From: a virus
Direction: 5' to 3' (one strand)
IMG/VR virus record: IMGVR_UViG_3300038379_000741
Location: 12,941-76,940 of that record
DNA length: 64,000 nt
Below are positions 3 to 57,609 of this stretch, in pieces (the first letter of the stretch is position 1; every line of letters begins with the position of its first letter). The position numbers and the translations under genes are program-made. The notes below the pieces were generated by a model. The model did not search any database, had not been told where the DNA came from, and saw only the letters and a list, made by a program, of their open reading frames with translations.

Positions 3-392
3 GCGCGCGCCCGAGCCGGGCGTAAGGCCTGGGCCGCCGACGTCGGCTACTTCACGCTCGAGAGCGCCCTCTGCACCTACAAGTCCTGGCACCGCCCGAA
101 CCGCCGCTACCCGAACGTCTACGCCGACATGATGGTCGAGCGCATCCAGATCGCCGAGGAGCACTGGGCCGAGCCCCTCGACATCTTCTGGCGGATCCGC
201 CGGGAGTCGCTGCCCCCCGTCCTCCGCCTCGAGGACAACCCCAACGATCCCGGAGTCGCCCCGGAGAAGCAGAACCGCTATCGCGAGACCGGCGAGGTCG
301 TCTGCATGGACATCGACTGGCCCTGCTTCGCCAGCGAGTTCAACGACGCGCTCCACGGCTACACGACGCGGGCGCCATCTGGGTCCAAGTGA
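3..392 (+). CDS. Amino acid:DNA transferase (alpha-glutamyl/putrescinyl thymine pyrophosphorylase clade 2-like), 5'-truncated by window edge
   Basis: The frame is open from base 3 and reads DVGYFTLESALCTYKSWHRPNRRYPNVYADM...GEVVCMD, which I recognise from aGPT-PPase2 proteins of T-hypermodifying phages. It overlaps the P-loop kinase gene. Confidence 0.7.
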   Translation, partial: ARARAGRKAWAADVGYFTLESALCTYKSWHRPNRRYPNVYADMMVERIQIAEEHWAEPLDIFWRIRRESLPPVLRLEDNPNDPGVAPEKQNRYRETGEVVCMDIDWPCFASEFNDALHGYTTRAPSGSK

Positions 393-5224: not shown

Positions 5225-5799
5225 AAGGAAGCGACATGGAACCCGTGAAAGAGATCAAGGATTTGGCCGAGGACGTGGCCGCCAACCACGTGCAGTCGAT
5301 TGCTGCGATCGAGCGCGAGCGCGAGTCGGCCGCCCTGCTGCTGGTCGCGGTCCTGGACGCCGTGCGACAGGCGGCGCCGGCGCTCGCGTCGCGGGTGCCC
5401 GAACACGTCAAGGGAGACGTGCGTGAGTCGAACTGGCAGGACGCCGCGGTCTCGCACTTCCCGTGGCGCGGGATCAAGCTCGTAGGTGGGCCGCTGTTTC
5501 GGGCCGACGGCATCGTCGAGGGTGCCGCTCTCCACTTCGACGAGGACGGCAACCTTCGGATCGTCAGCTACTCGGGGATGTGGACCAAGGACCATAAGGC
5601 CGAGTGGGTGTCGAAGGCGTCCGACCCGGTCACGTGCCGGCAGGTCGTCGACGGTAGGTGGTCGATCGAGGGAATCGTCGAAACATTCGCCCATCACCTC
5701 CGCCGGCACGCCGAGGGGGCACGGGGCAGGCGCGCCGATCAGGCCGCCAGGCTCGCCGATCGTTATGAGGCCATCGTGACGTTGCTGGGGGAGCCATGA
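5221..5799 (+). CDS. Hypothetical protein (192 aa)
   Basis: Coupled ORF that overlaps the start of the Cas12m-like gene. Confidence 0.6.
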   Translation: MKGSDMEPVKEIKDLAEDVAANHVQSIAAIERERESAALLLVAVLDAVRQAAPALASRVPEHVKGDVRESNWQDAAVSHFPWRGIKLVGGPLFRADGIVEGAALHFDEDGNLRIVSYSGMWTKDHKAEWVSKASDPVTCRQVVDGRWSIEGIVETFAHHLRRHAEGARGRRADQAARLADRYEAIVTLLGEP

Positions 5800-7355
5800 T
5801 CCGTGTCTACAAATTCGGTGCACGTCCACCAATGAATCGTGACCTCGTCGTGTCGCAGCTCCACGCGGCGCACGACTACCGCAACACGCTGACGGAGATC
5901 GAGCGCGGCCGGCGCGATGCTGTGCGCCTCGTCTACGAGACCGACGAGATCCGCGAGGCCGCAGACGCGCTCAAGCACGCGACGAAGAGCGACTTTCGCG
6001 CGCGAAAGAAAGCGCTCTATGCGCTGCGTCGCGAGGCGATGGAAGCCAATCAGGAAGAGATCCAACGCATCAACGGACTCGCCGCCGATCTGCAACGCGG
6101 CGCCCGCGAGCTGACGCACACATTCTGGGGAACGTACTTGGACATCGAATCGCAGGCGCAGCAGGCGCGTGCGGATCCGCTCTACGGCGACGATGGACTG
6201 ACACCTCACGCGCCGCGTTTCGTTCGCTGGCGCGATCCGATGCAGGGTCAGCTCGGGGTCCAGATTCAACGTCTGACGACGACAGTCGACGTCCTTGCCG
6301 GGAAGTGCTCGTATGTCCGGGTCGAGCGGCGCGACAAGGGCTACGCCACCCTATGGCTCCGCGTCGGGAGTGATGGACGCGATCCGATCTGGGCACGCTG
6401 GGACATCAAGATGCACCGCGAGGTGCCGAACGCGGCGCGCTGGAAATGGGTCCGTGTCTCGTGCGTGCCGCGATCCTTCCGGGACAAACCCGAGTACCGC
6501 GAGACGTGGACGGTCGAGATCACCGTCGACGATCCGGCTCCTGATGCTCGTTCGCTCGACCGCACGCTGTCGGGTGCGGTCGCCATCTCGTGGTCGTGGG
6601 ATGCTATGCCGGACGAGTCGATCCGCGTCGCATCGTGGCGCGACACGCGCGGACAGGTCGGGGAGATCGTAGTCCCCGTGTCAATCACAAAAGGCATCCG
6701 CAAACCAGACGGAATCCGTGCGGTGCGCGACCTCGTCTGGAACGATGCACAGCCGAAGATCGCTCGCGCCATCAAGGAGAGCCAAGACGCCACGCCTTGG
6801 CTCGTGGAGGCTGCGAACACCATGCCCTACTGGAAGTCGCTCGGCCGCGTACACGAACTCGCCCGCCGTTACCGTGTAGAGGGCTGTACATCTGCGGTCG
6901 CGGCCTACGAGATGATCCACGCGTTTTGTGACCGCGATCTGCACCTCGCCGACTACGAGCGCAATGCGCGCGACGAAGCGATCCGCGAGCGACGTGAGAT
7001 GTACCGCGTACTCGCTGCGCAATGGGCGCGTACGTACCGGCATGTGCTCTTGAGCGACCATGATCTGTCGCGCGAGGCTCGGCGGGGCGAGGACTCGGAT
7101 GTGCGGTTCACAGCTTCGCCGAATCAACTTCGTGGCGCCCTGAAAAACGCGTTCGGCGCGGACGCGATCATGGCCACTTGGGACAAAGAGGAGGGGTGGT
7201 GCGAGCGCGCATGTGCCGCGTATTTTACGGCTGGCGCTCGCAGCGAGATGTTCGCGCAACCAAAGGAAAAAACGACGAACGCATGGGCGTCACGCAAGAA
7301 AAAGAAACAAGAGAAGGAGGCCGCTCGCAAGCCAGACGGTAATGCGGCGGAATGA
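5796..7355 (+). CDS. cas12m: Cas12m (type V-M / V-U1)-like RNA-guided effector, predicted nuclease-dead, 519 aa
   Basis: Colinear motifs recalled from MmCas12m: FWGTY, GQLGVQIQR, LRVGSDGRDPIW...MHREVP, AISWSW...VASWR, GEIVVP, YWKSLGR, EMYRVLAA...VLLSD and ASPNQLR. The RuvC-I acidic position is Ser265, RuvC-II is Asp421, and there is no CxxC Zn finger. The gene directly abuts a CRISPR array. Confidence 0.8.
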   Translation: MIRVYKFGARPPMNRDLVVSQLHAAHDYRNTLTEIERGRRDAVRLVYETDEIREAADALKHATKSDFRARKKALYALRREAMEANQEEIQRINGLAADLQRGARELTHTFWGTYLDIESQAQQARADPLYGDDGLTPHAPRFVRWRDPMQGQLGVQIQRLTTTVDVLAGKCSYVRVERRDKGYATLWLRVGSDGRDPIWARWDIKMHREVPNAARWKWVRVSCVPRSFRDKPEYRETWTVEITVDDPAPDARSLDRTLSGAVAISWSWDAMPDESIRVASWRDTRGQVGEIVVPVSITKGIRKPDGIRAVRDLVWNDAQPKIARAIKESQDATPWLVEAANTMPYWKSLGRVHELARRYRVEGCTSAVAAYEMIHAFCDRDLHLADYERNARDEAIRERREMYRVLAAQWARTYRHVLLSDHDLSREARRGEDSDVRFTASPNQLRGALKNAFGADAIMATWDKEEGWCERACAAYFTAGARSEMFAQPKEKTTNAWASRKKKKQEKEAARKPDGNAAE

Positions 7356-7374: not shown

Positions 7375-7792
7375 ATTCAAAGGGCAGCGCAAGGCCTTCA
7401 ACGTTGCGACAGCATCGGTTGATTGAAGGGGCGCGTCGGGTCCAGCTCATTCAAAGGGCAGCGCAAGGCCTTCAACGTTGCGACCGGAGCGACCTCGGGG
7501 AGGTGCGCGCGATTCAAAGGGCAGCGCAAGGCCTTCAACGTTGCGACCAGATCAACGCGGTCGACCGGATCGAGAGCGCCACGTAGATTCAAAGGGCAGC
7601 GCAAGGCCTTCAACGTTGCGACTCGTGCTCGCGCTCTCGCCGACGCTCTCGAGGATCACGCCTCATTCAAAGGGCAGCGCAAGGCCTTCAACGTTGCGAC
7701 GAATCGATCCATCACTTCTCTCCCGGGATCAAAGAGCAGCGCGGGGCTCCAACGTTGCGACAGCGGCCATTCGCGAGGCTCCAACGTCGCGC
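7375..7792 (+). CRISPR. Mini CRISPR array: 5 identical 36-bp repeats, 5 spacers, degenerate trailer repeats
   Basis: ATTCAAAGGGCAGCGCAAGGCCTTCAACGTTGCGAC occurs at 7375, 7449, 7512, 7587 and 7665. Spacers are 38, 27, 39, 42 and 27 bp. A degenerate copy lies at 7728-7761 and a remnant at about 7773-7792. The 3' stem CGCAA/TTGCG is followed by AC. Confidence 0.97.
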
Positions 7793-7895
7793 CCGGATCG
7801 GCAACGTGACACACACCATCCCAGCAACATGAGCGCCAAGGGCCGCGGCCCCACACCGGCTCCTGGTTCGTGCCCGCGGCATCTCGAGAGTTCAG

Positions 7896-10512: not shown

Positions 10513-12236
10513 AACGCATGGCCAAGAGAAAGTTGCTTGACGGGACCGCTGCGTCCATGTTCAGTAAACGCATGGAATTGGAGGCACGTCGGCAGGAGCT
10601 TCAAATGGCGCTCGACGCAGACCGTTCCCAAGAAGAGCGGAACAAACTCGGGCAGTTCGCCACTCCTCTCGAGCTGGCGCGCGAAGTGGCTCGTGCAGCC
10701 CTCAACTACCTCAGGGGGCCAATTCGGTTTTTCGACCCCTCAATTGGGTCGGGTTCGTTCTTCTCTGCACTCCTCAACGAGCGCGGTCATCGAAAGCTCG
10801 CGTCCGCCCGAGGCATCGAGTTGGACGAGCGTTTTGTCAAGGCCGCCCGCAACCTATGGTCCGACGCCGGCCTCGTGGTGAATAACGGGGACTTCACGAA
10901 GTTGAAGCCACATACCGAGAACGCGACGCGCGCTACTCTCGTCTTGGCAAACCCGCCGTACGTCCGACATCACCATCTTGACCGGGAACAGAAGATCGGG
11001 CTCCAACGACGCGCCGAATCAATGCTGCGCTGCAAGGTGAGCGGGCTTTCGGGGCTCTATGTTTATTTCGTGCTCCTAACGCACGAATGGATGTCTGACG
11101 ACGGCGTTGCCGCTTGGCTGATCCCGAGCGAGTGGATGGACGTGAATTATGGGGCAGCTCTCAAAGAGTACTTATGCTCTCGCGTTACGCTTCTTCGGGT
11201 ACACCGCTTCGATGCAGCCGACGTGCAGTTCAAGGATGCGCTCGTCTCATCGGCGGTCGTCTTGTTCCGCAAGCGGGAGGCACCCAAAGGAGGTGTATGC
11301 GACATGACTGTAGGCTCTCTTTCGGCGCCGGTTCGGAGCCAGCAAATCTCCCTTACCGAGCTTCGACACGCTCCGAAATGGAGCTTTTATTTCCGCCCAA
11401 ACGGACAAGAACACAAGATGGACGTTCCAACTGTGACGCTCGGCGACCTATTTGACGTCAAGCGAGGGATTGCTACCGGAGCAAATGACTTCTTCGTCCG
11501 ACCCCGCGCGGAGTTCCAGGCGATCGGGATTCCCGACAAGTTTCTCCGACCCGTACTTCCTTCCTCCCGCCACCTCACGGGAGCGGTCATTGAGCGCGGC
11601 CCAGATGGCTATCCCAAACTTGAAGTTCCTCTCGCACTCCTTGACTGCAACCTTCCGGAGGAGCAAGTCAGGAAGGCGTTCCCGAAGTTGTGGAGCTACC
11701 TCGAATCGCCCGAAGGGCAGCAGGTTCGTACCGGGTATCTCACAAGCGGGCGGCGACCCTGGTACTCACAGGAGCAACGTGCATCAGCTCCCATCGTCGC
11801 GACATACATGGGGCGTGGCGGCCGAATGACGAAGCCGTTCAAGTTCTTCTGGAATCGCTCAGATGCAACGGCCACGAACGTGTACTTGATGCTAATCCCG
11901 AAGGGCGAGATCGCCGACGTATTAGGCGCGGAACCGGAGAAGGCGAAGGCCATCCGCGCGTTCCTCGACGAGACCGACGTTTCGGAGCTTCTCGGCCACG
12001 GCCGCGTTTACGGCGGTGGCCTTCACAAGCTCGAACCGAAAGAACTGGGGCGGCTGGACGCCTCTCGGCTGGTTCGTGATCTGGGTCTCGCGGTCAGTTT
12101 GCACCCTTCGTGGCGATCCCGAGGAGCGCGCACTCGGCCGCGACCTCGGCGTGCGCCTGGGCGAGGGCTTCCGCCTCCTCGCTCTCGCGCGCAGCACGGT
12201 CCTCTGCGAGCGCGGCCTCCCGCTCACTCGCGGTGA
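10509..12236 (+). CDS. Orphan N6-adenine DNA methyltransferase (Eco57I/TaqI-class, XamI-associated-like)
   Basis: GQFATP, FFDPSIGSGSF, NPPYVRH, LYVYF, RGIATGANDFF and YGGGLHKLEPKEL motifs. Codon usage is more AT-rich than the flanks. Confidence 0.88.
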   Translation: MKRMAKRKLLDGTAASMFSKRMELEARRQELQMALDADRSQEERNKLGQFATPLELAREVARAALNYLRGPIRFFDPSIGSGSFFSALLNERGHRKLASARGIELDERFVKAARNLWSDAGLVVNNGDFTKLKPHTENATRATLVLANPPYVRHHHLDREQKIGLQRRAESMLRCKVSGLSGLYVYFVLLTHEWMSDDGVAAWLIPSEWMDVNYGAALKEYLCSRVTLLRVHRFDAADVQFKDALVSSAVVLFRKREAPKGGVCDMTVGSLSAPVRSQQISLTELRHAPKWSFYFRPNGQEHKMDVPTVTLGDLFDVKRGIATGANDFFVRPRAEFQAIGIPDKFLRPVLPSSRHLTGAVIERGPDGYPKLEVPLALLDCNLPEEQVRKAFPKLWSYLESPEGQQVRTGYLTSGRRPWYSQEQRASAPIVATYMGRGGRMTKPFKFFWNRSDATATNVYLMLIPKGEIADVLGAEPEKAKAIRAFLDETDVSELLGHGRVYGGGLHKLEPKELGRLDASRLVRDLGLAVSLHPSWRSRGARTRPRPRRAPGRGLPPPRSRAQHGPLRARPPAHSR

Positions 12237-12378: not shown

Positions 12379-13041
12379 ATGGATGAGTACCGCCTCGAGG
12401 TGATGCCGGAGGGTGCCGATGACTGGGTCCTGCTCCAGAAGTGCTCGGGACCGATCCCCAAGGTGGGTGACACCATCAACGTCTACAGCGATCGACTCCC
12501 CCACGAGCGCACCTACTTCAACGTCGTCGACGTCCTGCATCACATGAACGCGTTTGGGCTCGATTCGGGCGAGACAGCCGCGGTATCGGAGATCTACGTC
12601 CACCTCGAGCCCGTCGACAGCGAGCCCCTGCGCCTCCTCTGCGACTGCGACGAGACCTGCTGGCGAGCCCACGGCATCGACGCCGACGACGAGTGCGGCT
12701 TCTGCGGCCTGCTCCGTCCCACCCCCCGCCCGAAGTGGAACAAGACCTCCGACCAGTGCTGGATCGCCAACGTCGACGTCCCCAGGCTCCAGGTCGTCGA
12801 GTCCGAGGACCCCGCCGAGCCTCGCGCCCAGATCCCCTACGTCCGGAAGGGCGTGGCCCGGCTGGTGGTCGAGAAGACGCCCGGCACCCAGGGCCAGTTC
12901 CGCTGGTGCGTGATCCTCGAGTCCGAGATCGAGCGCTACAGCGACAACCTCGGGGGTCACGAGGACTTCGCGGCTCGGGGATGCTCTCGCACCGCCGAGG
13001 GCGCACGCCAAGCCGCTATGGCTGCCGAGAAGCACGTCTGA
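12379..13041 (+). CDS. Hypothetical protein (220 aa)
   Basis: GC3-rich portion of ORF 12016-13041, with CDC...C...CGFC Cys motifs. Confidence 0.6.
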   Translation: MDEYRLEVMPEGADDWVLLQKCSGPIPKVGDTINVYSDRLPHERTYFNVVDVLHHMNAFGLDSGETAAVSEIYVHLEPVDSEPLRLLCDCDETCWRAHGIDADDECGFCGLLRPTPRPKWNKTSDQCWIANVDVPRLQVVESEDPAEPRAQIPYVRKGVARLVVEKTPGTQGQFRWCVILESEIERYSDNLGGHEDFAARGCSRTAEGARQAAMAAEKHV

Positions 13042-13529
13042 TGGGCAAGGTCTGGCTCGTCGGCGAGGACAACCCGTACGGGTCCGATCCCAAGTACGCC
13101 CTCTACCCCTACCCGGAACGCGCGAGCGGCCACCGCCTCATGGAGATCCTCGGACTCTCGCTCCGCGAGTACCTGGGCCCCAACATCCAGCGCCGCAACC
13201 TCTGCCGGCGCAAGTGGAACGCCAAGGAGGCCGCCAAGGCCGCCGAGACCCTCCTCGAAGAGGCAGAGGGCCAGCCGATGGTGTTGCTCGGCCGCAAGGT
13301 CGCGGGCGCCTTCCTGGTCGCCAATCAACCCCCCTTCACGACCACGACGTCCGCGGACCTGAGCCGCCTGATGGGCCGCGCTCGTGGCCCCCTCTTCGCC
13401 CATGTCTGCCGGTCCGTCCTGCTCCTGCTCCCGCACCCGTCGGGACGCTGCCGGGACTGGAACGTCGCCGGTAGCCGCGACCGCGCGCGGATCGCAGTCC
13501 ACCGCCTCCGCTTCCCAGAGTCCTCCTGA
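13041..13529 (+). CDS. Uracil-DNA glycosylase superfamily protein
   Basis: N-terminal LVGEDNP, SGHRL, RRNLC, VLLGRKVA and C-terminal LPHPSG motifs of the UDG-like fold. Confidence 0.65.
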   Translation: MGKVWLVGEDNPYGSDPKYALYPYPERASGHRLMEILGLSLREYLGPNIQRRNLCRRKWNAKEAAKAAETLLEEAEGQPMVLLGRKVAGAFLVANQPPFTTTTSADLSRLMGRARGPLFAHVCRSVLLLLPHPSGRCRDWNVAGSRDRARIAVHRLRFPESS

Positions 13530-20899: not shown

Positions 20900-21151
20900 A
20901 TGGTGAACCAGTTCAACGCCAAGATCATGTTCGAGGCCGTCCTCTGGCGCTGCCACGCCGAGGACTCCAATCTCTCCGGCTGCGTCGAGGGCTACTGGTT
21001 CCAGGGCGACCCCCCGGCGTGGCTGGTCCGAGACGCCGCAACCGGCCAGGTCCTCGCCAAGGGTACGACTACGACGGCGAAGGGAGGCCGGGCCTGCGTC
21101 CAGCGCGCCATCGCGCACATCAAGAAGGAGCGGAAAGCGCAAAAAGGATGA
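20900..21151 (+). CDS. Hypothetical protein (83 aa)
   Basis: GC3-rich ORF. Confidence 0.5.
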   Translation: MVNQFNAKIMFEAVLWRCHAEDSNLSGCVEGYWFQGDPPAWLVRDAATGQVLAKGTTTTAKGGRACVQRAIAHIKKERKAQKG

Positions 21152-48946: not shown

Positions 48947-50515
48947 GTGAGCATCGCCAACCAGGGCGTCACCCTCCAGGTTGGCGGTACCGTGGTGCTG
49001 ATCGCGACCCAGTACGACCTACGCGTCGGGGTCTTCGACCAGCCCGGAGCCTTCTCGCTCCAGCTCGGGAGCGGCGAGAGCGCCGCCAGCATCCTCCACA
49101 AGTACCCGAAGAACAGCCCCTTCGGCGTGCTCGTTGCCGACAAGCCCATCTTCGCCGGCTTCACGGACGGCAACAGCGCCTCGGGCGACGCGAGCGGGAC
49201 CGAGATCACGATCGACGGCCGCGGGACCCTCAAGTTCTTCTACGACTCCTTCCACGAGCGCGAGCAGAGCTACATCACGTCCACCTTCGCCGAGCTGATC
49301 GAGAAGGCCATGGACGCGGTGGGGATGACGAAGCCGTTCACGAACGGCGAGCGCCCCAGGATCCGCACCTCCAACGCCGAGGTCCGCCAGCTCCGCGCGG
49401 GCACGACCGTCAGCGCCTCGGGCGACGAGTTCTCGACGGAGCTGACCGAGCAGGTCGGCACCGTCGGCAACGCCAAAATCGTCCTGCGCGCCAAGCTGGG
49501 GGAGCGCTGGAGCGACCTCCTTCAGAGGGTCCTGAACCAGCAGGGCCTCTTCATGTGGGACGCCGAGAACGGCGACATCGTGGTCGGTCGCCCCAACACG
49601 CAGCAGCCGCCCCTCTACCAGATCGTGCGCGAGGTCGGGTCGGGGGCGGTCAACAACGTCGTCAGCTTCCAGTTCAAGGATGACATCCAGCCCCGCTACA
49701 GCGAGGTCGTCATCTACGGCCGCGCCTCGGGCCGCAAGTACGCTCGGACGCAGGCGCGCGGCGCCTACACCGACGACGAGATGGTCAACGCCGGGGTGCA
49801 CAAGACCCTCGTCCTGCACGACGTCGATGTCACCAGCACCGCCCACGCCGAGCTGATCGCGAAGCGCCACCTCGCCGAGGGCCGCCGCCGCGCCTTCTTC
49901 CTCGAGTACGTGGTTGCCGGCCACATGACCCAGCTCCTCGGAGCGAGCACGAACGACCTCATCCTCTGGACGCCGGACACGATGGTCCAGGTCCGGGACG
50001 AGCAGCTCGGACTCGACGGCTTGTACTGGATCGAGAGCTGCCGCTACCGCCGCAACGCCGGGGGCACCACCACTGCCCTCCGGCTCCTCGACCCGAACAG
50101 CCTCCTCTTCGGGACGGACGCGCCAATCTCGGTGCCGGATCCCAACGCGGCGGCCACCGGCTCGCGCGTCAAGGTGGGGGTCGGCGCCAAGCTCGCCTCG
50201 GTCAACCAGCACGGGCTCTTCACCGCGTACGCGCAGGGACCCGGCCGCTCCGTCGTCTACGGCACTGCGTCGGAACCCGGCGTCCCAGCCGACGTGCTCG
50301 ACTACTTCAAGCAGTTCCCGCAGGCCCGCATCTTCGAGGTCGTCGCCTTCATCCGCACCTCGCACCCCCAGCTCATGTTCCCGCCGGGCAAGCCCATCCC
50401 GCTCACGCGGCCGACCTTCGAGCGCGGCTTCCTGGTCCAGGACGAGTTCGCGAAGACGCGCAAGGCCACGACCCACATCACGTTCGAGCCCACGATCGTG
50501 ACCAGAAAGCTCTGA
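48947..50515 (+). CDS. Baseplate hub (Mu gpP/gp44-like) with C-terminal extension
   Basis: AFSLQLG, ITIDGRG, RYSEVVIYG and LWTPDTMVQVRDE...YWIES motifs. Confidence 0.8.
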   Translation: MSIANQGVTLQVGGTVVLIATQYDLRVGVFDQPGAFSLQLGSGESAASILHKYPKNSPFGVLVADKPIFAGFTDGNSASGDASGTEITIDGRGTLKFFYDSFHEREQSYITSTFAELIEKAMDAVGMTKPFTNGERPRIRTSNAEVRQLRAGTTVSASGDEFSTELTEQVGTVGNAKIVLRAKLGERWSDLLQRVLNQQGLFMWDAENGDIVVGRPNTQQPPLYQIVREVGSGAVNNVVSFQFKDDIQPRYSEVVIYGRASGRKYARTQARGAYTDDEMVNAGVHKTLVLHDVDVTSTAHAELIAKRHLAEGRRRAFFLEYVVAGHMTQLLGASTNDLILWTPDTMVQVRDEQLGLDGLYWIESCRYRRNAGGTTTALRLLDPNSLLFGTDAPISVPDPNAAATGSRVKVGVGAKLASVNQHGLFTAYAQGPGRSVVYGTASEPGVPADVLDYFKQFPQARIFEVVAFIRTSHPQLMFPPGKPIPLTRPTFERGFLVQDEFAKTRKATTHITFEPTIVTRKL

Positions 50516-51135
50516 TGGAGATCGGGATCGTTGCCGCCACAACGTACGAGGACAACACCCTCACCGCGCAGCCGGTCCTCTTCGGCGACGACGCCACCGC
50601 CGCGCCGGGGGAGGCTTACCACCCCCTCGGCCTCGTCGCCCGGCCCAACGACCCCGAGGTCGACCAGCAGAGCGGCGCGGTCACGAACGGGGCGCGCGTC
50701 CTCTACGTCTACGAGGGCTCGACCCTCCACACCCTCGTCCTCGACGACCCCCGGGCGACCCAGAAGCTCCCCCAGCTCGCCAAGGGCGAGGCCGCCTTCT
50801 ACTCTCCGGGGGCCCCCGACACCGCCCACGCGCGGTACTACGCCGATGGGAACCTCCTCGTCAATGTCCCGATGGGGAAGACTATCAAGGGGGGTGGGAA
50901 CGACGCACGCGCCCTGGCTCACTCGGCCGAAACGGTCGCGCTCTTCACGATCCTCAACACCCTCATCCTCGGGTTCCAGACGGTTTGTAACGACTCCACA
51001 GTCACGACGGTCGCGCAGCTCAAGGCCGCCCTCCTCCCCTACATCACCGCCGCCGTCACCGGCTTCACGACTCCGGTGAGCGGACCGGCACCGCCCCTCG
51101 TCAGCCTTCCCACCGTCAAGCAGCTCGGCACCTAG
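50515..51135 (+). CDS. Baseplate spike (Mu gp45-like)
   Basis: YHPLGLVARP and LAKGEAAFY motifs. Follows the hub gene. Confidence 0.72.
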   Translation: MEIGIVAATTYEDNTLTAQPVLFGDDATAAPGEAYHPLGLVARPNDPEVDQQSGAVTNGARVLYVYEGSTLHTLVLDDPRATQKLPQLAKGEAAFYSPGAPDTAHARYYADGNLLVNVPMGKTIKGGGNDARALAHSAETVALFTILNTLILGFQTVCNDSTVTTVAQLKAALLPYITAAVTGFTTPVSGPAPPLVSLPTVKQLGT

Positions 51136-51136
51136 G

Positions 51137-51547
51137 TCAGATGTTGCAGCACTTGCGGTAGAAGCCGTTGACGATCCCCATCGAGACGCACGAGCACCAG
51201 CCCCCGTCGGGTCCGCAGTTCTTGGGGAGGTCGGTAGCGGAGGTCGGGCACTCCCAGGCATTGTAGTGGTTGGTCTGGTTCAGGCAGACCCCGTCCAAGT
51301 TCGGGTTCCTCCAGCAGAGGGTCGACCCGGCATCCCCTCCGGAGTCGGCCGGACTAGTGTCGGCCGAGGAGGCCTCCGAGTCGCCCACCGCGTCAGGGCT
51401 GGAATCAGCCGCAGGAGCGTCGAGTGGACCAGCGTCGGTCGCGGAAGCCTCCGGATAGTCCACCACTGTGGTCCCATCGGGTGCGGTGTTGATGACGACG
51501 GTCGTGCAGGAGCACAAGAGCAAGAGAGCGAGCGAGATGAACCTCAT
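51137..51547 (-). CDS. Cys-rich lipoprotein (moron), opposite strand
   Basis: Signal peptide with lipobox MRFISLALLLLCSC, an Asp/Ala/Ser linker (DAG/DSG) and an 8-Cys C-terminal domain. Confidence 0.75.
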   Translation of the reverse strand: MRFISLALLLLCSCTTVVINTAPDGTTVVDYPEASATDAGPLDAPAADSSPDAVGDSEASSADTSPADSGGDAGSTLCWRNPNLDGVCLNQTNHYNAWECPTSATDLPKNCGPDGGWCSCVSMGIVNGFYRKCCNI

Positions 51548-51553
51548 GAGTCT

Positions 51554-51584
51554 GAGGAATAACCCCCTTTGAACCATTGTCAAA
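51554..51584 (-). promoter_or_regulatory. Possible promoter for the lipoprotein gene
   Basis: The minus strand reads TTGACA-16 nt-TATTCC just upstream of the ATG, in an AT-rich patch. Confidence 0.4.
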
Positions 51585-51591
51585 CGTTTGC

Positions 51592-51613
51592 GACGTCCCC
51601 GCGCGGGGACGTC
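51592..51613. repeat. Perfect 22-bp palindrome, copy 3 (24 bp with flanks)
   Basis: Identical to copies 1 and 2, lying between divergent genes. Confidence 0.95.
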
Positions 51614-51625
51614 GGGGATCCCTAG

Positions 51626-52096
51626 GTGGGAGCCGGCCTGAAGAAGGCGGGCGACCTCTGGGCCGGCCACGAGCTGCCCGCGGACGCCGAAGTCTTCGTC
51701 CCGATCGAGCAGGCTCCGGCCTACGATCCCACCATCCGGGGGATCCCGTTCGACGAGGACGGGCGCGCCCAGACCGTGCACTGGGTTGATCAGGAGGTCG
51801 CGTTCGTCCTCACCGTCCCGCTGGGGTCGGTGGCTTGCATCCCGGACGTCGGGACGGACGTGGCCAAGCTCAAGACCGCCACCTCCGACAACGTCCAGAC
51901 CGTGGTCGAGGACGTGGTCCAACGCGCCCTCTCCAGGCTCCTCAACCTCAAGGCGATCTCCATCGACGCCGTCGACGTCCTGCGACGCCCCGGCACGCTC
52001 GCCTACCAAGTCCATTACAAGAACCTCCTCATCCCGTCCCCCCAGAAGCAGGCCCGGACCGTCACGATCCCGCCCTGGGCCCGGAAGGCAGCATAG
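51626..52096 (+). CDS. Baseplate wedge protein (gp46/gp25-like)
   Basis: PLGSVACIPDVG...VQRALSRL. Canonical position before the J-like gene. Confidence 0.65.
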   Translation: MGAGLKKAGDLWAGHELPADAEVFVPIEQAPAYDPTIRGIPFDEDGRAQTVHWVDQEVAFVLTVPLGSVACIPDVGTDVAKLKTATSDNVQTVVEDVVQRALSRLLNLKAISIDAVDVLRRPGTLAYQVHYKNLLIPSPQKQARTVTIPPWARKAA

Positions 52097-52099
52097 AGC

Positions 52100-53614
52100 A
52101 TGCCCGTCGAAGTCCTCCCCGACGCCCTGACCGTCCCCTCGAGGGACGATCTCGTCGCGCAGTACCTCGCGGACATGAACTTCCGCGCGCCCAACGTCGC
52201 GGTCGCGCAGGGCCAGCTCGCCAACCTCGACGCCAACCTCGACGCCGACATGGTGCTCCCGCTCTACGGCGAGAGTGTTCGCCAGGGCGAGGGAGTCGGG
52301 CTCGAGCAGCAGACGTTCGAGCAGCTCCAGGATACCGCCGAGAGCAAGGGTCTTCCCCGGCTCCTCAAGGCGGTGGGGGCGATCGGGTTCGTCATCGCGG
52401 ATGCGTCAGCCGGCGGCGCCTTCATCACGCAGGGCGACATCTGCAAGCACCCTCAGACGAACGCCCAGTACCAGTGCACCCTCTCCGGCCTCTACCTCCC
52501 GGGAGCCCCCGTCCCTGTCAGCGGCATCACGACGGGTCCGAGCACCGACCAGGACGCTGGCACCATCCTGGTCTGGGTCAACCCACCGTCGGGCCTGAAC
52601 CCCAACGCCGTCGTCTTCGAGAACAGCGACGGCACCGGGCTCAGTGGCGGCAAGGAGGACGAGACTCGCGAGGAGCTGATCGAGCGCATTCGGAACGCGA
52701 ACGCGTTCCCGGCCGCGAGCGGCAACGACGCCTCTTACCAGCAGGTCACGATGCAGACGCCGGGCTTGGGCGTCGAGGCCGTCTTCACGTACCCTTGCGC
52801 GCAAGGACCTGGCACCAGCTCGGTCGCCTTCCTCATTCGACCATCGGGGCCGGGAGGAACCCGGATCCCCAACGCCGCCCAGATCTCCCTCGCCCGCGCG
52901 TGGGTGACGGGTCAGATGCCCAAGGACGACTCGATTGCCTGGTGCACGATCGTGGTCTCCAACGTCGTGGTCGCGGTCAAGATCCGCTGGGCCCAGGGCG
53001 TAGCCCGCTGGCTCGACGGGGTCCCCTGGCCGCCCCTCCCCAGCGACCTCCTCGCCTACTACGTCGACTATGCCAGCAGCCCGGGTGGGACCGCCACCCC
53101 CACCGTCTTCGCCGTCAAGACGACGACTTCAGATGCCACGGTGGCCCCGCAGGTCGGCCAGACCATCGGCTTCTACGACCGGACGAACAACAAGTGGTTT
53201 CGCAAGCGCGTCGGGGCGGTCTCGGGCGCGAACCCCTGGACCATCACGGTCGACCAGACCAACGGGTCCAGCGACACGTCCTACACGCCGACCGACGGAG
53301 CGCTCCCGGCCCCCTGGAGCGACAGCCTCGGGCTCGTGAGCGACACCGTCCTCGACTACTTCGACAGCCTCGGGCCCGGCGAGCAGCTCGCCACCTTCTT
53401 CGATGAGGGTTACCGGCAGAAGCGCAGTCCGCCGTCGCCTCAGAGCTGGCCGTACACGGCGAGCAGCAAGATGACCCTCGGCGCCGAAGAGCTGAGCGCC
53501 GTCGAGAGTCTCCTCGTCGCCGCGCCAACCCTCCCGCTCGTCACCGCCATCGGCACGGTCGGGGTGAGCAGCAACCTCCTCGTCCTCGTCACCTTCGTGG
53601 CTTACGCGCTCTAA
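52100..53614 (+). CDS. Baseplate J-like protein (Mu gp47)
   Basis: SGGKEDETREELIER, ASGNDASY and AQGPGT motifs. Confidence 0.85.
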   Translation: MPVEVLPDALTVPSRDDLVAQYLADMNFRAPNVAVAQGQLANLDANLDADMVLPLYGESVRQGEGVGLEQQTFEQLQDTAESKGLPRLLKAVGAIGFVIADASAGGAFITQGDICKHPQTNAQYQCTLSGLYLPGAPVPVSGITTGPSTDQDAGTILVWVNPPSGLNPNAVVFENSDGTGLSGGKEDETREELIERIRNANAFPAASGNDASYQQVTMQTPGLGVEAVFTYPCAQGPGTSSVAFLIRPSGPGGTRIPNAAQISLARAWVTGQMPKDDSIAWCTIVVSNVVVAVKIRWAQGVARWLDGVPWPPLPSDLLAYYVDYASSPGGTATPTVFAVKTTTSDATVAPQVGQTIGFYDRTNNKWFRKRVGAVSGANPWTITVDQTNGSSDTSYTPTDGALPAPWSDSLGLVSDTVLDYFDSLGPGEQLATFFDEGYRQKRSPPSPQSWPYTASSKMTLGAEELSAVESLLVAAPTLPLVTAIGTVGVSSNLLVLVTFVAYAL

Positions 53615-54168: not shown

Positions 54169-54648
54169 ATGCCCTCCTCGAACACGATCACGTACGACCA
54201 AAACCCCCCACACCGCCCCGGGACCGACGACGTCGGCGGAGCCGCGAAGGTGAACGCGCGCCGACCCCCGGACCCCCAACGGGCCCTTACCGCCGAGGAC
54301 ATCAACCAGCTCTCGAAGCAGATCGTCGAGATCGCCGGGGTATCGCCGGTCGCCATCTTGGTGGTCGTCAACACCGGGACGCCGACCATCGAGTCCGTGA
54401 CCGGCATGGGAAGCGCGGCCAAGAACCCGTCGACCTACACGCTCACGGACCTCGGCGTCGGTCACACTCGGATCTCTTGGCCGGCCAATACGTTCCCGGC
54501 CCGTATCGCTCGTCACACCGCCGACATCTCGGACACAACGGGCCAGATCGCGACCACGACGGGGGTCAACCAGGCCGAGGTCTACACCGAGGACGCGGGC
54601 GGCGGTGCGTCTGACAAGAGTTTCGTGCTCTTCATCATGGGTCAGTAG
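54169..54648 (+). CDS. Baseplate/tail protein, paralog B (159 aa)
   Basis: Shares TAED, AKNPxTY, SWPAxTFP and FVLFIxGQ with paralog A. Confidence 0.6.
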   Translation: MPSSNTITYDQNPPHRPGTDDVGGAAKVNARRPPDPQRALTAEDINQLSKQIVEIAGVSPVAILVVVNTGTPTIESVTGMGSAAKNPSTYTLTDLGVGHTRISWPANTFPARIARHTADISDTTGQIATTTGVNQAEVYTEDAGGGASDKSFVLFIMGQ

Positions 54649-55607
54649 TGGGGCAGTTCTCCGCCTTCACACCGTTCGGACTCTTCGACTTCTCGGACGA
54701 CCCCTCGCCCGCCGAGCTGTACTACGACTCCATGGTGGCCCAGCTCTCGCCGGCCTTCGACATGTCCGAGGGCACCTACATCGAGGCCAAGACGTTCGCG
54801 CGCGCGATCCTCCTCGGGTGCGCGCGAGCCCAGAACCAAGCGGCCAACAACCAGCGCATCCCGAGCCGCGTCCATGACAAGCTCCCCACCTGGGAGAAGG
54901 ACTACGGCATCGTCGTCGACCCTTCTTGGACCCCGGACACGCGCCGCGAGGTCCTCTCGGCCCGGGTCCTGCTCATGCACGGCTCGCGCGAGGAGGCCCT
55001 CTTCACCGAGCTGAGCGCCATACTCGGCACCGACCTCTACAAGATCCGGGCAACGCAGCCATCCGAGCGCGTCCTCTGGCCGTCGCCGGATCCGACCGGG
55101 ATCGGGACCTTTCCGGCCATGGACGCCCAGCTCGTCTTCGGCCGCATCCTCGACCCCGTCGCGGCCCCCGGCTCGGTCCAGGTCCGGTTCGAGGCGGTCG
55201 GCGACCTCTACCCGACCGTGGGGCAGAAGCTCTGTTTCGAGCCCGAGGTCAACGTCCTCACCGAGGCCGCCACCGTCACCGCCCTCGCGCGGTCGGTCGC
55301 CGGGCTCGAGAATCCCGACCTCCTCACCGCCACCTTCACGAAGGCCAAGGACGCCAACTCTTGGTTCGCGAGCGCGATGCCGCTCTGGCAGTCCTCGCAG
55401 CGCGTCCTCCAGATCATCGTCAAGCCCGCGGCCGCCGCGAACGTGGAGACCCGGCGCAAGGTCCACGAGGCCATGGCCAGGCATTGTAAGACCACTACCG
55501 AGTGGGAGATCATCGAGAGCGCCGACGGGGTCAACACCGGTCCCTGGATCGTCAACATCGCCTACGTGGGCTCCACTGCCATCGGGACCGTCCCGTTCGT
55601 GTTCTGA
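54648..55607 (+). CDS. Baseplate wedge protein (Mu gp48/YmfQ-like)
   Basis: LPTWEKDYGI...RREVLSAR motif. Confidence 0.7.
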   Translation: MGQFSAFTPFGLFDFSDDPSPAELYYDSMVAQLSPAFDMSEGTYIEAKTFARAILLGCARAQNQAANNQRIPSRVHDKLPTWEKDYGIVVDPSWTPDTRREVLSARVLLMHGSREEALFTELSAILGTDLYKIRATQPSERVLWPSPDPTGIGTFPAMDAQLVFGRILDPVAAPGSVQVRFEAVGDLYPTVGQKLCFEPEVNVLTEAATVTALARSVAGLENPDLLTATFTKAKDANSWFASAMPLWQSSQRVLQIIVKPAAAANVETRRKVHEAMARHCKTTTEWEIIESADGVNTGPWIVNIAYVGSTAIGTVPFVF

Positions 55608-55608
55608 C

Positions 55609-56871
55609 ATGCCCCACTTCCCCAAGGTCTGGCCGAACGGATTCAAGGACGGGATCACCACCGCCCAGGCCCACCAGCTCAAGAAGATCGACGACGCCCT
55701 CGCGAAGGCCGTCAACGGGGACGACGGCGGCCTCTGGGTCCCGGCCAAGCTCGAGGCTGACACTACCGCGTGGCGCCTCTACAAGGTCTCGGTCGTCTCC
55801 CAGGTCACGCCCTACACCGACGCCGACGGCGGCCAGAACGCCGTCTACCTCGTCGACTCGACCTCCAACGACCACCACAAGTTCTACCGGGACCTCCCCA
55901 CCTTCGTCTCCGGGCACAGGTACACGATCTCGACCTTCGCGAAGAAGAACACCGCCGTCCGGTACCTCTGGATGGCCAACGACCCGGGGACGACCCAGTA
56001 CGTCTTCTTCGACCTCCAGACGGGGACCGTCGGTGCCACGGGCGGCGGAGCGACCGGGACCATCACGTCCGCGGGGGGCGGTTGGTACTACTGCTCGGCG
56101 ACCATCCCGAACTGGACCGCGGCCCGGACCCACGTCGGAATGAGCACCGGCAACGGGACCTTCGCCTACGCCGGGACCGGCTTCCAGGGGATCCTGCTCT
56201 ACAAGGCGCTCGCCGACTTCGACTCCGGCACCGTCAAGGCGCGCCCGATCGTCGTCGGCGGGCTCGGCCTCCAACCCACCGTCGCCCCCACCAAGTGGCC
56301 GACCTTCGGCGAGGCGGGCGGCCAGCGCGTCTTCGTCCGCCGACTCGGCGCCCTCCCGGCTTCGCTCCTCCCCGGCCAGGCTCTCCCGACCTCCGGCGAC
56401 TTCATCGAGGGCCAGGGCCTCGGGCTCATGGGCGACCGACCCCTCCTGCTCCTCGACCTGCCCGAGGGCTCCTACCTGGCGAGCGTTACCGCCTACGTCA
56501 AGATCGCCACCATCCTGCGATCCCCTCTTCCGACCAACCTCCCAAAGATGAGCGTCCTTCGGACCGCGATCACGACTGGGTCCGAGTTGGAGCTGAGGGC
56601 GGCAGGGGCCTCCACATTCGTGGTCGGCGGGACCGGGATCCCGGACGCCTACGTCTCCCCACCAGCCAGCCCCAACGTTTACCCGACGACCGGGGGCCCC
56701 GGGGCCGTCCAAAAGTGGACGTACACGGCCGACCAGATCAACGCGGTCGACCGGACGACCTACTTCTACACGATCCGGATCCACGACGAGTCGGGAGGCA
56801 CCGCCATCGCGGGCAACACCTACCTCGGCTTCGAGCTGACCTTCCTGGCTCCCGAACTCCGAATTGCCTGA
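55609..56871 (+). CDS. Tail/fibre-associated protein, paralog A with inserted domain; contains the protospacer of spacer 3
   Basis: Colinear with 56884-57609 apart from a ~160-aa insertion. Confidence 0.7.
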   Translation: MPHFPKVWPNGFKDGITTAQAHQLKKIDDALAKAVNGDDGGLWVPAKLEADTTAWRLYKVSVVSQVTPYTDADGGQNAVYLVDSTSNDHHKFYRDLPTFVSGHRYTISTFAKKNTAVRYLWMANDPGTTQYVFFDLQTGTVGATGGGATGTITSAGGGWYYCSATIPNWTAARTHVGMSTGNGTFAYAGTGFQGILLYKALADFDSGTVKARPIVVGGLGLQPTVAPTKWPTFGEAGGQRVFVRRLGALPASLLPGQALPTSGDFIEGQGLGLMGDRPLLLLDLPEGSYLASVTAYVKIATILRSPLPTNLPKMSVLRTAITTGSELELRAAGASTFVVGGTGIPDAYVSPPASPNVYPTTGGPGAVQKWTYTADQINAVDRTTYFYTIRIHDESGGTAIAGNTYLGFELTFLAPELRIA

Positions 56872-56883
56872 GAGAGGACCCAC

Positions 56884-57609
56884 TTGGCGCACAACACGAA
56901 GGTATGGCCGGCCGGACTCACCGACGGGGTCAGCAAGATCCCGCACGGCGAGCTGGAGGCCATCGACACCAACCAGAGCAAGGCCATCAACGGCGACGAC
57001 GGCGGCGCGTGGTCGCCCTCCGCAGCCATCGTCATCACCGGGCAGGGGATTCAGCCGACCCTGACGGCGAGTCAATGGCCGAACTTCTTAGCCGACGTGG
57101 GCGCGAAGAGGACCGAGGTGCGCACGTCCGCCCTCACACCGGTCGCCCGCCTCTTCGTCGGGGGGCTCCTCACCTCCGGCAGCATCGTGCAAGGGCAGGC
57201 CGCTGGAACGGTCTGCACGACCTTGCTCCAGCTCCCCCACAACGCGACTCTCACGCAGGTCAAGGCCTACATCAAGGTCGGCTCCGGTCATAACCCCGGG
57301 CCCGGAGTCCCTGTCAACCTCCCCAACATGTCGATCCAGAGGCTCAACGCCGCGACCGGGGTCCTGACCGACTTCCTGAACGCCGCGGACCCGATCGCGT
57401 TCCCGACCCCGGGCTCCGAGGCGGCCTGGTACGCGGCGGGGGCGATCCAGTCCTGGACGTACACGTGCAACCAGAACAACGTCGTCGACCGGACCCTCTA
57501 CCACTTCCTCCTGGCCATCACGGACGAGACCGGCTCCAACAGCGTCGCCGGCAACCTCTACTACGGCTACGAGGCAACCTTCACCGTCCCGGACCTGCGA
57601 GTAGCCTGA
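56884..57609 (+). CDS. Tail/fibre-associated protein, paralog B
   Basis: KAINGDDGG, LPNMS and WTYT...VDRT shared with paralog A. Confidence 0.7.
   Translation: MAHNTKVWPAGLTDGVSKIPHGELEAIDTNQSKAINGDDGGAWSPSAAIVITGQGIQPTLTASQWPNFLADVGAKRTEVRTSALTPVARLFVGGLLTSGSIVQGQAAGTVCTTLLQLPHNATLTQVKAYIKVGSGHNPGPGVPVNLPNMSIQRLNAATGVLTDFLNAADPIAFPTPGSEAAWYAAGAIQSWTYTCNQNNVVDRTLYHFLLAITDETGSNSVAGNLYYGYEATFTVPDLRVA

Follow-up and report, generated by a model that had tools for sequence, protein, structure and literature searches.

The stretch of DNA analysed here (the window) comprises 64,000 nucleotides, bases 12941-76940 of a linear IMG/VR virus record of 94,388 bp with a G+C content of 67.6% and a CheckV completeness of 88%. 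On its plus strand, a cas12m-like gene for a protein of 519 amino acids (5796-7355) is followed by a CRISPR array (7375-7700), which starts 19 bases past the stop codon of this gene; the record contains baseplate and tail genes, and the array thus sits in a viral genome. Profiles of cas1, cas2 and cas4 found no match in the 94-kb record, although control profiles did match. An independent assembly of one freshwater run (Logan) agrees with the record in the architecture of the locus: word depth was ~17 in unique sequence, 42 in a piece present twice and 100.8 in the repeat, corresponding to ~6 repeat copies, and the contigs end where the record has its junctions. The Logan contigs break at the repeats and leave spacers 1-3 uncovered, so that spacer 3, the subject of this analysis, is neither re-confirmed nor contradicted by them.

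The 519-aa protein is Cas12m-like by sequence as well as by its modelled fold, the bilobed WED-REC-RuvC core. Its residues 173-431 were aligned by phmmer with a Cas12m chain of the PDB (23vw_A, E 8.6e-24), and the AlphaFold2 model (pLDDT 88.8) retrieved in Foldseek four top matches that all are Cas12m (8hhl, 8hhm, 8hio, 8pm4; TM 0.63-0.68), the best being Cas12m2 8hhl_A (E 1.4e-19, TM 0.65) and GoCas12m 8pm4_A (TM 0.68), whereas matches to other Cas12 proteins and TnpB did not exceed a TM of 0.40. We call the protein 'Cas12m-like' because the Zn-ribbon domain was not detected: the protein has no Pfam match, hence none to the Zn-ribbon (PF07282), which is present in distant homologues of 590-620 aa; its C-terminus holds a single C-x-x-x-C, and pLDDT is low past residue 490. 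In the phmmer alignment, Ser takes the position of the RuvC-I Asp, and the effector probably binds DNA without cutting it, to which this replacement points only indirectly. Cas12m is known to bind without cutting, to protect against phages and plasmids and to silence from within coding regions (PMC11013384); the duplex it forms is 17 bp (PMC10442227), or 18 bp are read (PMC11013384), mismatches in the first 11 nt are reportedly not tolerated (preprint 10.64898/2026.10.26.761838), and the PAMs described for it have TTN or else are rich in T or C (PMC11013384). For the 519-aa protein, >200 homologues of ~520-560 aa were found in metagenomes; the Zn-ribbon is likewise undetected in this clade, Glu or Ser stands at the RuvC-I position, many members lie on contigs of 45-230 kb, and the few source names are Labilithrix and Polyangiales (Myxococcota). 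Among bacterial genomes, a homologue was found on one short Acidimicrobiales MAG contig only.

The array is built of five identical 36-nt repeats (starting at 7375, 7449, 7512, 7587 and 7665), all on the plus strand, and of spacers of uneven length: spacer 1 (7411-7448) has 38 nt, spacer 2 (7485-7511) 27 nt, spacer 3 (7548-7586) 39 nt, spacer 4 (7623-7664) 42 nt and spacer 5 (7701-7726) 26 nt. Two of them share sequence with the genome of the carrier, spacer 3 with a tail-fibre-like gene (nt 1-22) and spacer 4, together with the repeat that follows it, with a site outside the window (nt 8-42). A decayed trailer (7727-7793) consists of a degenerate repeat (7727-7761), 10 nt and a repeat remnant (7772-7793). 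The own repeat was not found elsewhere in IMG/VR; the 24-nt core of the degenerate repeat is that of the repeat of a relative (L007, whose protein is 66% identical) and not of the own one, and it looks like an older repeat type retained at the trailer end.

The orientation of the array follows from the structure of its repeats. All 12 aligned related repeats terminate in GAC, and all 12 can pair a 5-bp stem (alignment columns 16-20/32-36), which closes 2 nt before the spacer; four of the five pairs show compensatory changes on both sides, and none of 500 shuffles reached the observed percentage of paired cells, number of double-change cells or covariation score. A second (pseudoknot) helix, which had also been proposed for the repeat, was rejected as unsupported (59% paired). 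The repeat design matches the scaffold of MmCas12m2, in which a G(-23).A(-2) pair and the stem end with A(-2) C(-1) and the guide lies 3' of the repeat (PMC10442227). In the array-bearing relatives, the array lies 3' of the gene on the same strand, in one of them a hairpin and then a T run come past the array, and in the present phage repeat decay is seen at the far end. Covariation of the repeat stem and the crRNA design of Cas12m (PMC10442227) thus fix the first nucleotides of each spacer, and with them the 22 nt of spacer 3, as the PAM-proximal end, as an earlier note on this DNA had assumed.

The match of spacer 3 to a tail-fibre-like gene

Nucleotides 1-22 of spacer 3 are identical (22/22) to positions 56734-56755 of the plus strand, within an ORF for 420 amino acids (55609-56871). 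This ORF lies directly 3' of baseplate genes, with baseplate hub and wedge PHROGs at 48947-53614 and a weak Mu Gp48-like Pfam match, below the cut-off, in the ORF just upstream (54648-55607); it therefore stands where a tail fibre is expected, and we call it tail-fibre-like on the ground of this synteny. The next gene (56884-57609, 241 aa) is a paralogue (36% identity, E 9e-37), in which the corresponding site (57472-57493) matches the spacer at 19/22 positions, with mismatches at guide positions 5, 11 and 12 and AAC as flank. Chance can be ruled out as the source of the identity: none of 100 shuffles gave such a match, and BLAST assigns it an E of 1.4e-7 against the whole 94-kb record. The remaining nucleotides 23-39 match the gene colinearly at 3 of 17 positions only. 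In all these points, namely the identity, the weaker match in the paralogue, the lack of colinearity beyond nucleotide 22 and a significance far beyond chance, the earlier note was borne out.

It was equally right about the sense and the flank. Spacer 3 has the coding-strand sense of the ORF, hence its crRNA would be of the same sense as the mRNA and could pair only with the template DNA strand, by which RNA targeting is rejected. The four bases in front of the gene site, CGAC, are the last four of the repeat and not the TTN of a Cas12m PAM, and the unbroken identity between array and gene consequently amounts to 26 nt (56730-56755, plus strand; codons ADQINAVDR); both of its ends are abrupt. 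Such a flank is expected by chance with a probability of ~0.013-0.016, and in the tail gene a CGAC stands at either end of the 22 nt. The CGAC at the self site is a conserved Ala-Asp codon pair, found also in relatives. Homologues in syntenic tail modules (L005, 60% identity; L006, 55%) retain the peptide W-x-Y-x-A-D-Q-M-N-P-V-D-R-T-T-Y-F-Y, and their DNA matches spacer 3 at 18/22 with the same GCCGAC flank; as the phage itself matches at 22/22, the source of the spacer is the phage or a very close relative of it. The tail protein has no relative among isolated phages, and within IMG/VR only a weak one was found.

Judged by complementarity alone, spacer 3 would suffice to guide the effector to the carrier's tail gene, since 22 PAM-proximal nucleotides cover the whole 17-18-bp duplex which Cas12m reads. 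From -4 to +22, however, the gene site and the phage's own repeat-spacer junction are the same DNA, so that binding of the effector to the tail gene would entail binding to its own array. Type V effectors would be expected to refuse the repeat end as PAM, and with a flank that equals the repeat-spacer junction the own tail-gene site is probably spared from binding.

The 17 unmatched nucleotides of spacer 3, read in the frame of the tail gene, give a stop after five codons, all of them common; rare codons occur in both other sense frames, one antisense frame also reads well, and the codon reading lends weak support to a colinear coding source. No exact copy of the junction was found, neither of nt 13-39 in IMG/VR nor of nt 12-35 in JGI metagenome contigs. 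Nucleotides 22-33 of the spacer (7569-7580) recur on the same strand at 55512-55523, within the gene that precedes the tail-fibre-like one, with I-E-S-A in frame at both places; with a genome-wide E of 0.13 this recurrence is probably due to chance, odd as its position is.

Self-like spacers in related phages

Arrays were read beside 15 homologues of the effector gene, in eight IMG/VR records, where spacers were compared with the whole record, and in seven metagenome loci of at most 22 kb. Counting the present record, spacers matching the carrier's own DNA outside the array were found in four of 16 phages (the others being G002, L090 and L096). Spacer 4 of G002 matches its own genome at 36/39 positions, with mismatches at 1, 37 and 39, two of which are synonymous third-codon positions; array and self-like site lie on opposite strands there and share no repeat-end flank. 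Spacer 4 of L096 also matches at 36/39 (mismatches at 1, 2 and 23). The array of L090 (11593-12422) has self targets at 10981-11012, 1852-1877 and 7169-7198, one of them within its own cas12m-like gene and one intergenic beside an integrase gene: spacer 2 matches the cas12m-like gene and is identical to it in the conserved P-x-W-L-x-E-A motif, differing in the adjacent hypervariable stretch, spacer 6 has a mismatch at position 9 and an indel, and spacer 8 starts with a non-matching block at nt 1-6. Units of this array are irregular, with spacers of 4, 8, 20-22 and 51 nt.

Five of the seven self-like spacers mismatch the carrier at the PAM-proximal end and one does so at position 9, leaving spacer 3 of the present phage as the only one with an intact seed; the seed-end mismatches of the relatives fall on positions 1, 1-2, 1-6, 1-7 and 9. 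These spacers of the relatives look like alleles taken from close relatives. Repeated acquisition from the same loci is indicated by spacers 7 and 11 of L090, which are two variants of one protospacer, and by spacers 1 and 3 of G005, which overlap on opposite strands. The three bases preceding guide position 1 at the seven self-like sites (GAC, GAT, ACT, GCG, TCG, GCA and AGA) reveal no shared PAM. Searches for protospacers gave no match to spacer 1 in IMG/VR or metagenome contigs, only its own array for spacer 6 of G002, and mere noise when the array was compared with GenBank phages.

Possible origins of spacer 3

The explanation which we tentatively prefer, and to which we would give not quite an even chance, is that spacer 3 comes from close kin and that the phage's own site is spared by its repeat-like flank. 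A phage-borne, adaptation-less Cas12m-like module would draw its guides from genes of very closely related phages and keep these relatives out by occupying their DNA, whereby transcription or replication would be blocked. Spacer 3 would stem from the tail-fibre allele of a near-identical relative, or from an earlier variant, which diverges from that of the carrier immediately past ...GTCGACCGGA, the carrier retaining the first 22 nt; its own site would stay unbound, as its flank CGAC is the repeat end and presumably no PAM context. What we infer here is where the spacer came from, that the self site is not bound and that the module serves exclusion. A derivation from kin is favoured because the self-like spacers of related arrays behave as alleles of close relatives. 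Virus-borne mini-arrays have been described that target close relatives, the orthologous loci of the carrier bearing mutations or deletions (PMC6858448), and the self-like spacers of the related arrays, with their seed-end mismatches, follow the pattern of these sibling-targeting mini-arrays (PMC6858448).

Several observations fit a kin-derived spacer less well. Neither the full 39 nt nor the junction was found in IMG/VR or JGI metagenome contigs, and no protospacer has come to light for any spacer. The known relatives have the GCCGAC flank, too, and a homologous source would probably have been without a PAM unless it differed just upstream. The seed of spacer 3 is perfect against self, unlike that of the relatives' self-like spacers, and its divergence is an abrupt block and not scattered; as the carrier's locus differs only past nucleotide 22, escape would have to rest on the flank, and the coincidence of this flank with the repeat end (chance 0.013-0.016) is left unexplained. 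The first option of the earlier note, a spacer aimed at tail genes of competing relatives, thus emerges as the best supported one thanks to the allele-like spacers of related arrays, but a full-length, PAM-flanked homologue, for which it had suggested a search in relatives, was not found: the two known ones are flanked by GAC and match at 18/22. Its suggestion that modified T could protect the carrier's own DNA is weakened, as the proposed module for thymidine hypermodification has an aGPT-Pplase2 gene truncated at its 5' end. This homologue of aGPT-Pplase2 (PF18724; window 3-392 plus upstream sequence, record 12814-13299) has lost its first ~215 codons and kept residues ~215-380, its N-terminal half was found nowhere in the record, and the module may be non-functional.

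The truncated gene lies close to a second piece of DNA that the array shares with the genome. Nucleotides 8-42 of spacer 4 (35 nt) and the whole repeat, in total 72 nt (window 7630-7701), recur with 100% identity 8 kb upstream, outside the window (record 12549-12620, i.e. window -391 to -320; locus L002 1501-1572). The left junction of this copy and a twofold word depth are visible in the Logan contigs. On one side of it is a gene of a RuvC-like resolvase, on the other a mosaic of gene remnants (the truncated aGPT-Pplase2 and a short ParB-like fragment), and it looks like a rearrangement scar. Taken together, the spacer 4 copy, the uneven spacer lengths and the units of 4-51 nt in L090 show that these arrays have been reshaped by recombination.

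Reshaping of this kind is what the strongest rival invokes, which we regard as possible but rather unlikely: spacer 3 would have been captured from the phage's own gene without the usual acquisition machinery, by a template switch or illegitimate recombination primed at the shared CGAC, and would have no function. The 22 nt of the gene would have replaced the front of an older spacer, and the product would be tolerated thanks to an effector limited to binding and a flank that is no PAM. The best argument for such a capture is the extension of the identity by 4 nt into the repeat, to 26 nt, by a flank of low chance probability (0.013-0.016); moreover, CGAC brackets the 22 nt on both sides in the gene, the identity starts and stops abruptly, another stretch of this array recurs in the genome at a scar beside the truncated aGPT-Pplase2, lengths are uneven in this array (38, 27, 39, 42 and 26 nt) as in the units of L090 (4, 8, 20-22 and 51 nt), and cas1, cas2 and cas4 were not found in the record. 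What speaks most clearly against it is the length of spacer 3, which with 39 nt falls into the canonical range of the family (36-40 nt), a value that a partial replacement would preserve only by luck. Furthermore, allelic divergence explains the self-like spacers of the relatives, the opposite strands of array and self-like site in G002 go without a shared repeat-end flank, and the CGAC, being a conserved Ala-Asp codon pair in relatives as well, may be mere coincidence.

Improbable in our view is autoregulation, the second option of the earlier note, by which the spacer-3 crRNA would guide the effector to the template strand of the tail-fibre gene, close to its 3' end, where a roadblock would time or limit the expression of this gene and of downstream late genes. 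The perfect PAM-proximal pairing over 22 nt does exceed the 17-18 bp used by Cas12m (PMC10442227, PMC11013384), and a site within a coding region is one from which Cas12m can silence (PMC11013384). Among six self-like spacers with a defined target sense, five share the sense of spacer 3 (binomial p ~0.11), and two self targets of L090, in the cas12m-like gene and in the intergenic region beside the integrase gene, are typical regulatory places. The crRNA would pair with the template strand, which is the effective orientation for roadblocks by dCas12a. With a flank equal to the repeat end, however, binding would imply binding of the own array DNA, and this flank is not T- or C-rich like the known Cas12m PAMs (PMC11013384). 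The site is found not at a promoter but inside a late structural gene, 37 codons short of its stop; spacer and site are unconserved, the relatives carrying other spacers and homologous sites that match at 18/22, and no spacer of a relative matches a tail gene. Mismatches between the relatives' spacers and self cluster in the seed, whereas a self-guide would require the reverse. A self-regulatory guide would call for a functional PAM at the promoter or in a 5' region, conserved among relatives; this was not what we found, and autoregulation of the tail gene gained no positive support, the DNA from -4 to +22 being indistinguishable from that of the own array. More doubtful again is a variant in which the effector accepts the repeat-like flank: sitting on the template strand close to where the tail-fibre gene ends, it would reduce read-through to late genes further downstream and at the same time feed back on its own array.

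Very improbable, finally, is an assembly artefact, with metagenome reads joined into a chimeric array or a chimeric spacer 3: the record was indeed assembled from a metagenome, repeats do break assemblies and spacers 1-3 are outside the Logan contigs, but the Logan word depths (~17/42/100.8) fit a single genome with six repeat copies, the junctions are reproduced, and a chimera would neither set 22 nt of a gene 49 kb off exactly between two intact repeats nor be expected to yield a spacer of canonical length.

Known systems and further observations on the related loci

The closest parallel to a kin-derived spacer is provided by the mini-arrays of SPV1 and SPV2 of Sulfolobales (Medvedeva et al. 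2019, PMC6858448): there, too, a virus carries an array without adaptation genes, the spacers correspond to genes of the carrier lineage while the orthologous loci of the carrier differ, and stand-alone repeats occur in the viral genome. Unlike SPV1 and SPV2, which use Cas proteins of the host, the present phage brings its own Cas12m-like effector; moreover, its own copy keeps a perfect match of 22 nt on the seed side, and a reciprocal target phage was not found. With type V-M systems (MmCas12m2, 8HHL; GoCas12m, 8PM4; PMC10442227, PMC11013384) the locus shares fold, sequence similarity, a non-canonical RuvC site and a 36-nt repeat whose stem ends 2 nt (AC) short of the guide, and known systems of this type need no tracrRNA-type partner (PMC10442227, PMC11013384); it differs from them in the size of the predicted effector (519 aa versus ~600), the undetected Zn-ribbon, the Ser at the RuvC-I position and in being phage-encoded. 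The Cas12m of myxophage MV-1 (preprint 10.64898/2026.09.14.751636) likewise is encoded by a phage next to an array, with no cas1, cas2 or cas4; this MvCas12m has 610 aa, a D-E-D triad and eight spacers without matches (preprint 10.64898/2026.09.14.751636). The protein described here, in contrast to that of MV-1, belongs to the shorter clade with its >200 metagenomic homologues, and spacers match the carrier itself.

Should the reading as a conflict among kin be true, tailed phages of this clade would combat their nearest kin by means of a CRISPR effector of their own that binds DNA and does not cut it, and one relative (L090) even has a spacer aimed at a cas12m-like gene. With a non-cutting effector, a guide could match the genome of its carrier without killing it, which would relax the rule against self-targeting, and tolerated self-matching guides could be a first step to regulatory use. 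An effector aimed at the carrier's own DNA, for repression and not destruction, is known from Francisella, where the scaRNA acts with Cas9, and from crRNA-like RNAs regulating cas genes. Such regulatory guides have limited complementarity beside a proper PAM at a promoter, whereas here the seed matches in full, the flank resembles the repeat and the site lies far inside an ORF. In the 519-aa protein, a compact natural relative of Cas12m, and in its natural guide-target pairs, which are defined, the locus offers a means to measure PAM rules and the discrimination between self and non-self directly.

Some observations on the related loci should be added. A scan with a back-translated motif for further viral relatives gave three matches, all of them false. 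In L092 (7983-10004), a gene of an AcrVA2-like protein (PF26125, 673 aa) lies directly upstream of the cas12m-like gene and overlaps it. A more distant relative, G008 (L048), has a stand-alone repeat and a partial second one (12029-12102) ~600 bp upstream of the cas12m-like gene, and a fragment of 21-27 nt of the repeat 3' end (21035-21061) 6.3 kb downstream of its array. The IMG/VR record of G001 (L035-L037; 59,962 bp) is classed as linear, but its ends overlap inside the CRISPR array with the same spacer at both ends, and this record probably is circular or terminally redundant.
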